Below are positions 39,229-44,628 of a DNA stretch of 64,000 nt, in pieces (the first letter of the stretch is position 1; every line of letters starts with the position of its first letter). The DNA lies in assembly GCF_044341265.1 (NCBI RefSeq), contig NZ_JBIISA010000009.1, positions 49,077 to 113,076 on the forward strand. Direction: 5' to 3'. The notes under the pieces are model-generated. The model made no database searches, was not told the DNA's origin, and saw only the letters and a program-made list of their open reading frames with translations. A program made the position numbers and the translations under genes. This stretch comes from Flavobacterium sp. (GTDB lineage Bacteria; Bacteroidota; Bacteroidia; Flavobacteriales; Flavobacteriaceae).

Positions 39229-39258
39229 AAATCCTGAACGAAAGTTTGGGATTTTTTT
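39229..39258 (+). terminator. Intrinsic terminator after DUF4293
   Basis: aaaatcctgaac-gaaa-gtttgggattttttt. Confidence 0.8.
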
Positions 39259-39263
39259 GGTTT

Positions 39264-39284
39264 AATCTGAACTTGTTTCAGATT
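39264..39284. repeat. REP-like palindrome (CTGAACTTGTTTCAG family)
   Basis: aatctgaa-cttgt-ttcagatt; same core as the copies at 43677 and 44601. Confidence 0.6.
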
Positions 39285-39354: not shown

Positions 39355-40065
39355 TTAGCTAATATTTTTTTTAATCTTTATTTGTCTTATTTGATTATCA
39401 AGTAGGTTAACATATAGGATTTTCCCTTCCAATACATCTTCAAGATTCAAAATAACCTTAATTGTTTCGGTCGTAATATAACTACCAATTATTCCACAAA
39501 TAGGGCTAATTACACCTATTTCAGAACAACTTTCACTTTTTAAGTAGTCGTTAAAATCAAAAATATCTTTCAAACTAAAGTCATTTAAATAATGAAAAAC
39601 TGTTATATATCCTTGCCAATCTGAAACTGCTCCATGAACTAATACTTTTTTATGTTCAGCACAATAATCATTTATTATTGTTCTACTCATACCTTGATCT
39701 GTGCAATCGCAAATTATTTGATACTTTTTAGCAATTTCTGTAACAGAATTTTTCTCAATCTTTTTCTCAATTCTATTTATAATAATATTAGGATTTTGCA
39801 GTCTTAGTTTTTCCGCCAATACCGAAACCTTGCTTTTTCCAATATCGCTAGGTGTAAAAAGTATCTGCCTATGTAAATTAGATACTTCTACTTTATCAAA
39901 GTCACATATACCGATAGTTCCTACTCCCATTGCAACTAAATATGATGCAACAATAACTCCTAAACCACCTGCTCCAGCTATTAAAACAGAGGCATTTGCT
40001 AAATGTTTCTGCCCAGATTCACCTATTTCAGGAAGAATAATTTGCTTTTGGTATCTTTCTGTCAT
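39355..40065 (-). CDS. ThiF/MoeB/HesA (E1-like) adenylyltransferase lacking the Zn-binding CxxC pairs
   Basis: GAGGLG (aa 31-36), DFDKVEVSNLHRQ, GKSKV, DCTD, SC180SEIG at the MoeB catalytic-Cys position; start overlaps the DUF4132 stop (ATGA). Confidence 0.88.
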   Translation of the reverse strand: MTERYQKQIILPEIGESGQKHLANASVLIAGAGGLGVIVASYLVAMGVGTIGICDFDKVEVSNLHRQILFTPSDIGKSKVSVLAEKLRLQNPNIIINRIEKKIEKNSVTEIAKKYQIICDCTDQGMSRTIINDYCAEHKKVLVHGAVSDWQGYITVFHYLNDFSLKDIFDFNDYLKSESCSEIGVISPICGIIGSYITTETIKVILNLEDVLEGKILYVNLLDNQIRQIKIKKNIS

Positions 40066-42632
40066 CTATTTATTTGCGAGGTGATTGTAGTATCAGTTAT
40101 CTTATCATCATTGGCAAGTAAAAGTGCTTTAGATATAATTACCGACAATCCGTTATCGCCTTCAAAAGGTAAAAACAAATTATTATTTGTTTCTTTTAAA
40201 CTTCTATCGGGAACGATACATAAATATTGGTCATTAGGTTCCATCAAAATATTAGTACTCCCAATATGAATTTTATAGGTTCTTATTTTGCCTTTAACAA
40301 CCACAAATCTATCCTCAATGTGCGTTACAGAAGCTATTTTTAATCTAGGAATAAGTCCAAGTAAAATCTCTTTTCTGTTTTTGGCAATTTCTGATAAATC
40401 ACCAAAAGAATAAGACTGCCAATAATCTCTGTAAGTAGGTAAGCCTCCTGAGTCGCTCCAAGTAGGATCGTTACCAACGCTAGATACACCCACAAACAAA
40501 TCAACATCTCGCATAACTTCTGAAAATGCAATAGCTGGAATATCAACTAAATCAACTAATTCATTCGTTTCCGTATTTATGAAACGTATTTGGTCTGTTG
40601 TAACATAATTCCAAATTCCAGTTGCATTGAATTGGTCATCTGCATTTAAACTATTTACCCAAAATTCTGCACAAAGCTTATATTCAGGTAAATATAGTTT
40701 AGCAACATCATCGTCACCACCATCCCATGCACCTATTAATTTAGCTTTCCAATTTCTTCCTTTTGCTAGAGTAACATATTGATGTTGCTTCAAAATATGC
40801 GATGCCATCCGATTGCTATATGTCCTAGTGTTAACTTCGGCATCAGTTAACAAATAAATTTCTCGGTAAGCTTGCTTAAATGGTTGTTGAATTTGACCTT
40901 CCATTAAGAAATTTCTCCAATTTTTAACTTCTTGAGTGCTACTAGTAGCCGGATGCCAAAGTGAAACATGAGTGAACTTTTCTAATTCCAACTCTTCAAA
41001 ATCAATTGTATAGAATTGATCTTTTAGGTAAATTGCCAAAACATTTTTTGAATTATTTGAAAAATTAAAAATTATTTTTTGAATCACAAAAGAGAGTAAT
41101 CCATGTTGTTGATATTTTTCTTTAAAGTAATCTAAACTCATTACTCTGTCGCATCTAAGCATCCTGTCAATACGTTCCTTTTGTGCAGATGTGGTTTGGT
41201 CAATTTGCTTTTGTATGCTTTTTAGTTTTTTTAATTTGGCATCAAATTTATCTTTAACCAATTGCGGAACAGATTTCTGCTCTGTACCATCGGCTTTATA
41301 CCATTTGATAATTGATTTACCCATCCCGATGAGCGAAAGAGTTCCTTTAATTTCATCAAATTGATAAGTAAATTCATGATTTTCTAGTTTAAAATCATCT
41401 ACAGCTAAATCTTCAATTTCTGAGGAAGAAACCCCTAATTTAGTAGCTGCTTCTGCTATATACTTTTCAATTAATGCTAAAGTATTATTTTGTTTAATTT
41501 TTAATCTTAACCTAGATAATTGTGCTATACCGTCTAAACCTTTTGAAGCAAATAAAGTATATAAACACGCATTGCCTAATCCAGCCGAAGCTGGTCCTTT
41601 TTCGGGAATTTTTTTAAAACATCTTTCAGATAACTTACTTATAGTAATTATAGTGTTGCTATCATAATACCATGAAGACATCCATACAAAGCCTTTTAAA
41701 ATATCTACATTCGGACTTGATAAAAATTCTATTGAATTATATTGGTATTCTTGTTTATAATAAATTTGAGTATGTGTAGTAATTGTTTCCTTTAAATTTA
41801 TGATTTCTTGAAACCATTCTTGTGTTACTTTTTTAAACTTATCCGAACCTATTTTATCCATTGTTATTTTGGCTTCAGCTAAAAATTTTTGTGTAGGTTT
41901 TGCACCTGTAGCTTTTTGAGCCAATTGCATAAGTGTAAACCAATTTTGCTGGTCTTCCTTTTTGATTTGATCTAAAATTGCATTTCCAATATTTTTAAAA
42001 TTGTCTTCACCAACAAAATATGTTGGTTTTACTGAATTCTCGTCATTTTCACTTTTAAATAAAAAGGATTTTATTTTTTCTTCTAATTTTAGTTGGTCTT
42101 TGTAATAATAAGAATTTGTCTCTTTTTCAAAACTTAAAATATCTTCCAGTATCGTTTTGATTGTGTTAGGAATATCAACATCAGGGTAATTAAACTCAAT
42201 TTGTTTAAAAAAACCTGCTAAAGGCCACCAATGCATTTTATCATAGCCTTTCTCTGGAAAACTATTTTTAAAGGAACTGTACAAAGAAACAATTGTTCCT
42301 TCTGTAAATTTCATTTTACTTCTAAAAAGTGCGGGAATCATTTGGTTGGCCAATTGAAAATCTTTAGTTTCTTTTTTGGAACCTTTTTGATAGCCTTTAA
42401 AGTTGCTATTCAAGGATTCTGTCAAGAAAACTATAAATAATCCTTTTTTCTCGTCATCCCATTTTTTGATTATCTGGTTGTAACTTTCAATATTGGAGAA
42501 ATTAACAGTATAAAAATAAGAGGATTCTTTTGTAGCTTCTTCAACACAATTTTCGAAAACTGTGATGAATTCATTTGATTGCTGTTCTCCTTGGATTCCA
42601 AAAGCAGATTTTAATTTATCTAAAATTCCCAT
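40062..42632 (-). CDS. DUF4132 domain-containing protein (856 aa)
   Basis: IEDLAV...SLWHP...QQPFKQAYREIY (DUF4132), FSEVMRDVDLFVGVSSVGNDP, C-terminal YKIHIGSTNILMEPNDQYLCIVP...PFEGD. Confidence 0.85.
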   Translation of the reverse strand: MGILDKLKSAFGIQGEQQSNEFITVFENCVEEATKESSYFYTVNFSNIESYNQIIKKWDDEKKGLFIVFLTESLNSNFKGYQKGSKKETKDFQLANQMIPALFRSKMKFTEGTIVSLYSSFKNSFPEKGYDKMHWWPLAGFFKQIEFNYPDVDIPNTIKTILEDILSFEKETNSYYYKDQLKLEEKIKSFLFKSENDENSVKPTYFVGEDNFKNIGNAILDQIKKEDQQNWFTLMQLAQKATGAKPTQKFLAEAKITMDKIGSDKFKKVTQEWFQEIINLKETITTHTQIYYKQEYQYNSIEFLSSPNVDILKGFVWMSSWYYDSNTIITISKLSERCFKKIPEKGPASAGLGNACLYTLFASKGLDGIAQLSRLRLKIKQNNTLALIEKYIAEAATKLGVSSSEIEDLAVDDFKLENHEFTYQFDEIKGTLSLIGMGKSIIKWYKADGTEQKSVPQLVKDKFDAKLKKLKSIQKQIDQTTSAQKERIDRMLRCDRVMSLDYFKEKYQQHGLLSFVIQKIIFNFSNNSKNVLAIYLKDQFYTIDFEELELEKFTHVSLWHPATSSTQEVKNWRNFLMEGQIQQPFKQAYREIYLLTDAEVNTRTYSNRMASHILKQHQYVTLAKGRNWKAKLIGAWDGGDDDVAKLYLPEYKLCAEFWVNSLNADDQFNATGIWNYVTTDQIRFINTETNELVDLVDIPAIAFSEVMRDVDLFVGVSSVGNDPTWSDSGGLPTYRDYWQSYSFGDLSEIAKNRKEILLGLIPRLKIASVTHIEDRFVVVKGKIRTYKIHIGSTNILMEPNDQYLCIVPDRSLKETNNNLFLPFEGDNGLSVIISKALLLANDDKITDTTITSQINR

Positions 42633-42643
42633 AATTTAAAAAA

Positions 42644-43033
42644 TTAACCACCGACCAAAGGTGTAAGTTTAACAAAAGAAATAATTGATTGATTATTTAG
42701 ATTTACTATTTGACTTAATTCTTCTAATTGTTGATTGTCAACTAATATAAAAAAACCATTTTTTTGAAATGCATCTAAAGCAACATATATTTGTTTTTCA
42801 ACATCGATGATTTGCTTCGGCTTTAGTTTAAAACCATTAAGAGTCCTTTCAGCATCTGAAGGTTTCACCAAACCATTGAAATAATCGGGAAATTTCTTAT
42901 TGTAGATTTCTATTTCATGCGTTACTCTCTTTTCTATGAGTTCTTGGGTTGTAATGGATAATCTTTCGATTTCTATTTCAAATTGATTGGTAACTGTTCC
43001 ATTTAATTGTTCGTCTTTGATAAGTACATTCAT
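42644..43033 (-). CDS. Putative ubiquitin-like (beta-grasp) protein with C-terminal di-Gly
   Basis: 129 aa ending SFVKLTPLVGG*; beta-alpha-(insert)-beta pattern (ITTQELIEKRV, FFILVDNQQL); first gene of the operon containing the E1-like gene. Confidence 0.7.
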   Translation of the reverse strand: MNVLIKDEQLNGTVTNQFEIEIERLSITTQELIEKRVTHEIEIYNKKFPDYFNGLVKPSDAERTLNGFKLKPKQIIDVEKQIYVALDAFQKNGFFILVDNQQLEELSQIVNLNNQSIISFVKLTPLVGG

Positions 43034-43179: not shown

Positions 43180-43674
43180 CTATCGTTTCCCTATTTCCAC
43201 AATCTCCAAACTCTGAATTTTATCTCCATCGATTTCAAATCGTAACATTGTTCGCACTTGATGAAATCCTGAAATACCACACGCACCTGGATTCATGTGT
43301 AGTAAATTCAATGTTTTATCAAATTGCACCTTTAATATATGGGAGTGTCCGCAGATGAACAATTTTGGAGGATTCAATTTTAGTTCCTCACGAACAGCCT
43401 GATTGTATTTTCCGGGATAACCTCCAATATGTGTAATCCAAACATCAACTCCTTCGCACAAAAATCTATTATTTAATGGAAATTCCATTCTAGCTTTGTC
43501 GTCGTCTATGTTTCCGTAAACCGCTCGAAGTGGTTTTAGTTTTTTGATGGTATCGGTTACAACCAAATCACCAATATCGCCAGCATGCCAAACTTCATCT
43601 GCTTGATTTACATATTTTAAAATAGTATCATCTATATGACTGTGCGTATCGGAAAGTAAAAGGATTTTTTTCAT
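43180..43674 (-). CDS. Metallophosphoesterase (YfcE family)
   Basis: LSDTHS, HAGDIG, VYGNID, ITHIG, CGHSH, HMNPGACG. Confidence 0.92.
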   Translation of the reverse strand: MKKILLLSDTHSHIDDTILKYVNQADEVWHAGDIGDLVVTDTIKKLKPLRAVYGNIDDDKARMEFPLNNRFLCEGVDVWITHIGGYPGKYNQAVREELKLNPPKLFICGHSHILKVQFDKTLNLLHMNPGACGISGFHQVRTMLRFEIDGDKIQSLEIVEIGKR

Positions 43675-43696
43675 TTATGCTGAACTTGTTTCAGTA
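43669..43696. repeat. 28-bp inverted repeat, left copy
   Basis: tttcatttatgctgaacttgtttcagta; exact reverse complement of 44601-44628. Confidence 0.85.
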
Positions 43697-44600: not shown

Positions 44601-44628
44601 TACTGAAACAAGTTCAGCATAAATGAAA
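44601..44628. repeat. 28-bp inverted repeat, right copy
   Basis: tactgaaacaagttcagcataaatgaaa; includes the ATG of the next ABC gene. Confidence 0.85.

Follow-up and report, generated by a model that had tools for sequence, protein, structure and literature searches.

A 64,000-nt stretch of DNA from Flavobacterium sp. (contig NZ_JBIISA010000009.1; hereafter the window, on which all coordinates are based unless another locus or contig is named) contains a cassette of three tightly coupled minus-strand genes, which encode a small, predicted ubiquitin-like protein (Ubl), a large partner protein with the domains DUF4132 and DUF7737, and an activating enzyme (E1) of the MoeB/ThiF type, called cassette ThiF when relatives at other loci are considered. 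Comparison across genomes reveals that this trio is the E1-carrying form of a widespread, mobile two-gene module, in which the Ubl–DUF4132 pair is the unit under selection and ThiF is an optional, portable third gene. The reading that we favor, tentatively and with somewhat less than even confidence, is that the E1 activates the Ubl, which would then react covalently with the DUF4132 protein. The cassette comprises the following features:

42644..43033, minus strand: Ubl gene, 129 aa, predicted beta-grasp fold with a conserved insert (residues ~47-77) and a free C-terminal L-V-G-G
40062..42632, minus strand: partner gene, 856 aa, with modeled N-terminal ARM/HEAT-like helical repeats, DUF4132 and DUF7737
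40749..41288, minus strand: DUF4132 domain, partner residues 449-628 (Pfam PF13569, E 2.5e-36)
40071..40385, minus strand: DUF7737 domain, partner residues 750-854 (Pfam PF24879, E 8e-39)
40218..40220, minus strand: codon of partner Cys805 in the motif QYLCIVP, candidate acceptor for the activated Ubl C-terminus
39355..40065, minus strand: E1 gene, 236 aa, MoeB/ThiF-type adenylyltransferase (Pfam ThiF, E 2.7e-66)
39526..39528, minus strand: codon of E1 Cys180, counterpart of MoeB Cys187 and ThiF Cys184 (alignment with 1jw9_B)

The gene coupling given in a preliminary description of this DNA is exact in the open reading frames and their translations: the Ubl and partner genes are separated by 11 nt, the partner and E1 genes overlap by 4 nt (ATGA), and the Ubl reads ...TPLVGG at its C-terminus, followed by the stop codon. 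Because all three genes are kept in the same order in many genomes, we consider them real.

A two-gene core with an optional third gene

In a scan of one genome per species, at least 540 species were found to encode a relative of the module. The gene neighborhoods were surveyed at the best 80 loci with 10-kb flanks, to which all counts out of 80 refer; these loci are mostly from Bacteroidota, with single metagenome-assembled genomes (MAGs) labeled Leptospirales, cyanobacteria and Janthinobacterium. The Ubl gene lies directly upstream of a DUF4132–DUF7737 gene of ~850 codons at 75 of the 80 loci, the remainder being contig ends or broken genes, which marks a very strong functional tie between the two proteins, and the pair is present also in Deinococcus and Novosphingobium. 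The same survey placed ThiF downstream of the pair in 27–30 loci, about a third; many genomes share the linkage, whereas its restriction to the window's genome would, according to the preliminary description, have refuted the proposal. Thus the three-gene system of the preliminary description holds as a recurrent trio and has to be reduced to the pair as the selected unit. Any other gene family recurs in at most nine of the 80 loci, and the flanks differ everywhere.

The distribution is patchy at every scale examined. Among 401 evenly sampled Bacteroidota genomes, 11 carry a family member, and within the genus the Ubl occurs in 3–4 of 36 genomes, each time in a different context. The pair is also found on megaplasmids. 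A tblastn search of 50,697 phage records with the partner protein returned zero relatives. The contexts of two other Flavobacterium trios are unrelated, and one of these trios immediately follows McrBC and an AAA_15/HNH pair. In this relative (G022, locus L010, 9307-15929) the genes follow one another on one strand in the order AAA_15 ATPase, HNH-like gene, McrB, McrC, Ubl, DUF4132, ThiF, with a gap of only 9 nt between McrC and the trio, an arrangement that may represent a composite defense island. Further unusual arrangements of the pair were seen at loci L056 (1166-8306), L083 and L156. Some loci have two tandem DUF4132–DUF7737 genes behind one Ubl gene, as in L056, where ThiF follows, and L156, on a Fulvitalea plasmid, has a long-form and a short-form pair (the two forms are described below) side by side.

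The small protein and its Gly-Gly end

The Ubl matches no Pfam family at E≤0.1, the ThiS/MoaD family PF02597 included, and no protein sequence in the PDB. Searching 1.84 billion cluster representatives (50% identity clusters) at E≤1e-3 nevertheless recovered a family of 994 clusters. An exact Gly-Gly (GG) end is present in 141 of the 150 best cluster representatives, mostly as L-[VI]-G-G, with the exceptions being mostly fragments or frameshifts, and in an alignment of 46 sequences with identities down to 36% the residues F89, L126, G128 and G129 are invariant, indicating that the free GG end is selected. The AlphaFold2 (AF2) model, with a mean confidence score (pLDDT) of 84, has a beta-grasp fold with the order strand-strand-helix-(insert)-helix-strand, in which the insert of ~30 residues (47-77) is poorly ordered in the model yet conserved in sequence, with the pattern GLVQP..E..LNG. 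Nearly all top Foldseek matches in the PDB are MOCS2A/MoaD, ubiquitin, SUMO, NEDD8, ISG15 and Urm1, with probabilities up to 1.0 and E-values of only ~0.02; the fold assignment can therefore be made on the consistency of the matches and not on any single one of them. Together, the model and the conserved terminus support the ubiquitin-like character predicted in the preliminary description and place the small protein in a large unnamed family of beta-grasp Ubls.

Two apparent relatives were set aside. P0274 (969 aa), which resembles a DUF4132–Ubl fusion, is a gene-calling artefact whose middle part is frameshift garbage, and E. coli YehK, considered as a relative of the Ubl, has no similarity to it.

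The E1 and its apparent interchange with host enzymes

The cassette E1 scores 223.6 bits against the Pfam ThiF model (cut-off 28.1) and stays below the cut-offs of the more specific NCBIfam models, with 215.8 versus 266 for the MoeB subfamily and 209.1 versus 275 for the ThiF equivalog; the NCBIfam UbaA model matches it at E 1.5e-47, also under its cut-off. Its alignment with E. coli MoeB (1jw9_B, E 4.9e-35) spans the entire protein and brings SC180SEIG opposite TC187VEAG. The intact ATP site and Cys180 noted in the preliminary description recur throughout the family: 25 of 25 cassette ThiFs share G31, G33, G36, D55, D57, N63, Q67, K79, D123 and Cys180, and 20 of 20 host MoeBs have the counterpart of Cys180, supporting the view that the cassette E1 is catalytically intact. 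Neither Pfam nor NCBIfam detects a rhodanese domain in it. Both CxxC zinc motifs are missing, as they are from host MoeBs in these Bacteroidota, so that this loss is not diagnostic of the cassette enzyme. In a phylogenetic tree, the host MoeB-rhodanese proteins form one clade, outside which fall the short, faster-evolving cassette ThiFs, recurring in several families.

The presence of cassette ThiF is complementary to that of a host E1. With the E1 of the window as query, we counted full-length MoeB-type E1s in 65 genomes that carry a cassette. Among genomes whose cassette includes ThiF, another such E1 is present in 13 and none in 17, the window's genome included; among genomes whose cassette lacks ThiF, another E1 is present in 33 and none in two, both of which are MAGs. 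Fisher's exact test gives p = 6e-6, a value that is confounded in that the test treats genomes as independent of phylogeny and incomplete MAGs add noise. The other E1 is usually a MoeB-rhodanese protein of 350-410 aa. The same exchange is seen within the genus Kordia: K. aestuariivivens, in which a host MoeB-type E1 is absent, has kept cassette ThiF, and in Kordia sp. PBSAbac3, in which the host MoeB is present, cassette ThiF is reduced to its last 40 residues, located after DUF4132. Apparently, a host MoeB replaces cassette ThiF where the latter is missing.

The host genome of the window (3.58 Mb, 100% complete) contains zero PF02597 matches and thus no ThiS/MoaD, and it likewise lacks MoaE and Prok-E2_B. 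This leaves the GG-ended neighbor as the only evident substrate of the cassette E1. As stated in the preliminary description, no E2, JAB, rhodanese, thi or moa gene accompanies the operon; none is found within 33-50 kb of the window, and the sole Prok-JAB gene of the genome lies on contig C70, beside a Cap2-like E1 fusion and away from the cassette. Considering the family chemistry of such enzymes and their genomic complementarity, we infer with good support that the Gly-Gly carboxylate of the Ubl is adenylated by an E1, either the cassette's own or the host's.

The partner protein

Both named domains of the partner are recognized well above the Pfam cut-offs of 27 bits (125.7 bits for PF13569, DUF4132, and 132.2 bits for PF24879, DUF7737). 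The AF2 model (pLDDT 83) consists of an N-terminal half of ARM/HEAT-like helical repeats and a C-terminal alpha/beta half. The latter has no match among PDB sequences, PDB folds or viral folds, and a Foldseek search with the whole model gave only weak helical-repeat matches against the PDB and nothing meaningful against viral structures. In an alignment of 42 sequences the C-terminal half is rich in invariant polar residues, comprising WHP559-561, R573, Q583, K586, Q587, R590, E591, Y593, S606-N607-R608 and H612, followed by E705, R708, D709, D711, R784, Y786, K787, H789, S792, N794 and C805. Those of DUF4132 are grouped into the invariant motifs WHP559-561, R573, QPxKQAxRE and SNR, and the DUF7737 motif Y-K-I-H789-x-G-S792 is common to all forms of the protein. 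Such a density of invariant polar residues would befit an enzyme or a module for precise binding. A search of the literature on DUF4132, YehI, MolR, MoxR and SWIM found nothing mechanistic.

At their N-termini, the short-form partners share the sequence M-G-[IL]-[LF]-D-K-[IL]-K (42600-42632 in the window), which is modeled as a short helix of low confidence and could serve as an amphipathic anchor, a degron or a modification site.

Cys805 accompanies the Gly-Gly end

One invariant residue of DUF7737 tracks the C-terminus of the Ubl. Cys805 is present in 42 of 42 short-form partners of GG-ended Ubls. The Cys is also found in Novosphingobium, where the Ubl ends ...LKGG and the partner reads YLCIVP, and in the long-form partner DRA0166 of D. 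radiodurans, which reads FLCIVP and is paired with a Ubl ending ...LAGG. In a sister Ubl subfamily (HMM E ~1e-13 to 1e-19), G-x-[YIL]-W replaces GG directly before the stop. These G-x-x-W Ubls pair with long DUF5724–DUF4132–DUF7737 proteins of about 1,650-1,750 aa. In nine of nine such partners Ser, Asn or Ala takes the place of Cys805, and N794 is mostly lost too, while the motif Y-x-[IV]-H-[LI]-G-S and the remainder of DUF7737 are retained; the nine belong to Flavobacteriaceae, Bacteroides finegoldii and Chondrinema. A DUF4132–DUF7737 gene on an Acetobacter plasmid has neither a Ubl neighbor nor the Cys. This co-occurrence is suggestive of a link between Cys805 and the GG end, and we infer, with weaker support than for adenylation, that Cys805 is where the partner would react with the activated end. 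The proposal of the preliminary description that the DUF4132 protein acts as acceptor or unconventional E2 thus receives a fitting candidate residue, a DUF7737 Cys invariant only where the Ubl ends in GG; its E2 part did not find the homology that was sought.

UBC (ubiquitin-conjugating) enzymes have an HPN...C site, and the array H789-x4-N794-x10-C805, which follows short strands and precedes two helices, loosely resembles it. We aligned the DUF7737 alignment by hhalign with three eukaryotic E2s and with four Cap2-type Prok-E2_B domains taken from genomes, and searched the DUF7737 profile against PDB sequences and Pfam, where no similar family was found. With hhalign probabilities of 0.3% and 0.04%, below 1% throughout, and empty profile searches, membership of DUF7737 among the E2s is not supported.

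Together with this negative result and the confounded complementarity test, several further observations weigh against covalent conjugation. There is no conserved fourth gene across the 80 loci, such as one for a JAB or other deconjugating peptidase. In the tree the G-x-x-W forms make up a single clade, sister to Deinococcus, so that the Cys/GG pattern amounts to one joint loss, or two with Acetobacter, and not to many independent events. A Ubl gene is missing next to two DUF4132 genes that encode the Cys. Finally, both the relationship of the E1, which is closest to sulfur-transfer E1s, and the structure of the Ubl, which matches MoaD best, would suit a sulfur carrier equally well. We regard as doubtful, at well below even chances, the more specific proposal that DUF7737 is a new, non-UBC fold carrying the Ubl as a thioester and that the pair constitutes an undescribed Ubl conjugation system of several bacterial phyla, served by its own or a borrowed MoeB-type E1 and switched by DNA damage or oxidative stress.

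The Deinococcus ortholog

Published data exist for one ortholog of the pair. D. radiodurans DR_A0165 (SEP068184; 134 aa) is GG-ended and matches the Ubl HMM at E 1e-16, and the adjacent DRA0166 is a long-form partner (1626 aa) whose N-terminus is DUF5724-like; the pair lacks a neighboring E1 gene. The drA0165-drA0166 operon, regarded as hypothetical and assigned to the DdrO regulon, was reported to have a radiation/desiccation response motif (RDRM) at -83 and a DdrO chromatin immunoprecipitation peak, and to be strongly derepressed upon DdrO depletion (PMC8533742). In the same work DRA0166-V5 was induced by mitomycin C in an IrrE-dependent manner, and E. coli MolR was placed in the LexA regulon (PMC8533742). 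A separate study described DR_A0165 as a Deinococcus-specific stress peptide whose level rises after oxidants and gamma rays, whose deletion leads to higher resistance to oxidative stress, and which co-purifies with many cytoplasmic proteins, Trx1 among them (PMC9650054). The two papers disagree on the RDRM, which the first reports (PMC8533742) and the second finds absent (PMC9650054). Neither of them recognized the ubiquitin-like fold or the GG end (PMC8533742; PMC9650054), and our literature search found no published description of the module as a Ubl system.

The Deinococcus pair (L148, 916-7406) lies between the thioredoxin gene trxC (DR_A0164), the product of which is the reported interactor, and a DUF99 gene, with modA and a thiS-thiG-thiD cluster a few kb away.

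Comparison with known systems

The combination of a MoeB-type E1 and a GG-ended beta-grasp protein, with no recognizable E2 or E3, is shared with SAMP-UbaA of Haloferax, TtuB-TtuC of Thermus and Urm1-Uba4 of eukaryotes. Unlike those proteins, the cassette Ubl belongs to a separate, unnamed family with the ~30-residue insert and no PF02597 match, and it is fixed beside one large DUF4132–DUF7737 partner with a GG-linked Cys; the cassette has no linked tRNA-thiolation or molybdenum cofactor partner and no JAMM peptidase, and conjugation is in its case a proposal only. The carrier–synthase pairs MoaD-MoaE (with MoeB), ThiS-ThiG (with ThiF) and CysO-CysM (with MoeZ) resemble the module in that the gene for a small GG-ended carrier adjoins that for a large partner and the E1 is often encoded elsewhere. 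The cassette partner, however, is unrelated to MoaE, ThiG and CysM, the module is mobile and patchy, its sister forms lack the GG end, and the window's host has no MoaE or ThiS/MoaD.

Bil, Bub and the CBASS proteins Cap2/Cap3 likewise combine a Ubl and an E1 within an accessory operon, and the E1–E2 models of PADLOC match the core of the cassette E1. These models align only to its adenylation part, the cassette has no E2 domain and no linked JAB or other peptidase, and the one Cap2/Cap3-like pair of the host is on another contig. Searches of PADLOC-DB 2.0, a check that had been proposed along with the preliminary description, found no matching system: neither the Ubl nor the partner has a match, and that of the E1 is partial and limited to the generic E1–E2 models. 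With E. coli YehH (MolR) and YehI, encoded in the yehF-yehQ cluster, the partner has the DUF4132 domain in common; YehI differs in that it stops at DUF4132, without DUF7737 and the Cys, and has WGR, MoxR, VWA and SWIM genes as neighbors.

Proposed mechanism and alternative explanations

The covalent reading can be formulated as a series of steps. The MoeB/ThiF-type E1, from the cassette or the host, would adenylate the Gly-Gly of the Ubl, as suggested by family chemistry and the complementarity of E1 genes. The activated C-terminus would then be passed to Cys805 of DUF7737 to form a thioester, a step for which the co-occurrence of Cys and GG speaks. More speculatively, the partner might retain the Ubl or transfer it to a lysine, its own or that of another protein, and an activity of the DUF4132 core would be switched in this way. 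Where the Ubl ends in G-x-x-W and the Cys is absent from the partner, the pair presumably acts without a covalent bond. Covalent chemistry between Ubl and partner is favored because the entire DUF4132/DUF7737 core persists in these sister forms, in which activation is impossible; such retention suggests that the covalent step would add regulation to a core reaction distinct from it. As for the setting, a stress or DNA-damage response or a genetic conflict is more likely than cofactor synthesis.

The main rival is a sulfur carrier, which we consider possible and on the unlikely side. The E1 would adenylate the Ubl, a persulfide would convert the C-terminus to a thiocarboxylate, and the DUF4132–DUF7737 protein would act as a 'synthase' on some substrate, with Cys805 forming an acyl-disulfide or bearing a persulfide, by analogy with MoaE, ThiG, CysM and TtuA and their carriers. 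In keeping with this, MoeB and ThiF are the nearest relatives of the E1, genomes whose cassette lacks ThiF tend to have a host MoeB-rhodanese protein, a sulfur-transfer E1, MOCS2A/MoaD is the best structural match of the Ubl, the placement of a small carrier gene beside a large partner mirrors moaD-moaE, and a linked E2 or peptidase is absent. On the other hand, the cassette E1 itself carries no rhodanese domain, the partner resembles no known sulfur-insertion enzyme in Pfam, PDB sequences or folds, and a patchy, mobile distribution with flanks that all differ is unusual for biosynthesis. The G-x-x-W forms moreover keep every other invariant residue of DUF4132 and DUF7737 and cannot carry sulfur, implying that the core needs no sulfur donor.

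A role in anti-phage defense or another conflict, as suggested in the preliminary description, would be compatible with either chemistry: the module would sense infection or DNA damage, and attachment of the Ubl would arm or restrain a DUF4132 effector. The accessory, mobile character of the module, with its differing contexts within the genus and its occurrence on megaplasmids, points in this direction, as do the McrBC and AAA_15/HNH pair abutting it in one Flavobacterium, some immediate neighbors matching models for type I restriction, MADS, AriA, SoFic, PtuA, AbiEi and DRT, and the induction of the Deinococcus ortholog by DNA damage (PMC8533742), a behavior shared with many prophage- and defense-linked genes. 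Most immediate neighbors, however, are ordinary, such as tRNA synthetases and TrmD, with each defense family accounting for at most 3 of 133; the flanks in the window are housekeeping genes, PADLOC models match neither member of the pair, phage-encoded relatives are absent from the records searched, and the sole published deletion phenotype concerns oxidative stress (PMC9650054). With defense genes a minority among the neighbors and with empty phage and PADLOC searches, support for the suggested role is weak and we regard it as unlikely.

It is, finally, quite improbable that the Ubl does no more than serve the DUF4132 protein as a non-covalent subunit or chaperone, with the GG tail fitting into a pocket and ThiF being a passenger or a displaced housekeeping gene. 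In favor of such an explanation, the G-x-x-W forms demonstrate that a GG end is dispensable for the existence of the pair, and two thirds of the cassettes have no E1 of their own. Against it stand the exact GG-stop across hundreds of divergent clusters, a hallmark of E1 substrates, and the behavior of ThiF, which is translationally coupled through the ATGA overlap, recurs in several families, is kept where a host E1 is absent and, in the window's genome, has no other evident substrate.

Genomic surroundings of the cassette

The cassette is flanked on one side by rho and a DUF4293 gene and on the other by a YfcE-type phosphoesterase gene, truA and an ABC exporter. The phosphoesterase gene (43180-43674) was considered as a module member and rejected, its adjacency to the cassette not being conserved elsewhere. 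A 33-nt element resembling repetitive extragenic palindromic (REP) sequences (GGATTTTTTT..TTTA..CTGAACTTGTTTCAG) occurs as direct-repeat copies at 39249-39281 and 43662-43694, which are 88% identical and bracket a 4.4-kb segment consisting of the cassette and the phosphoesterase gene; a third, inverted copy lies at 44601-44628, ahead of the ABC exporter. The repeats could mark the boundary of an insertion or simply belong to a dispersed terminator or REP family. On host contig C70 (~67770-69845; locus L003, 568-2640, and L157) a 152-aa Prok-JAB protein is encoded immediately downstream of a 536-aa ORF that has a ThiF/E1 core. The two resemble a Cap2/Cap3-like E1(-E2)/peptidase pair, which would probably be part of a CBASS-type system and is unrelated to the cassette.

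Implications

DUF4132, the MolR/YehI family with thousands of members, gains a handle through these observations, namely a dedicated Ubl partner, an apparent need for an E1 and a candidate reactive Cys. What is new is the partner family within the theme of prokaryotic Ubls and E1s, the theme itself being already known. The trio of the window is the cleanest form for reconstitution, having its own E1 in a host without a competing ThiS/MoaD pathway, and the Deinococcus gene pair, so far a stress peptide and a hypothetical protein, is open to reinterpretation in a genetically tractable organism. If sulfur is transferred, the module would point to a thiolated product not yet known; if the Ubl is conjugated, it would represent a bacterial Ubl system without a recognizable E2, relevant to the origin of ubiquitin signaling from sulfur carriers.

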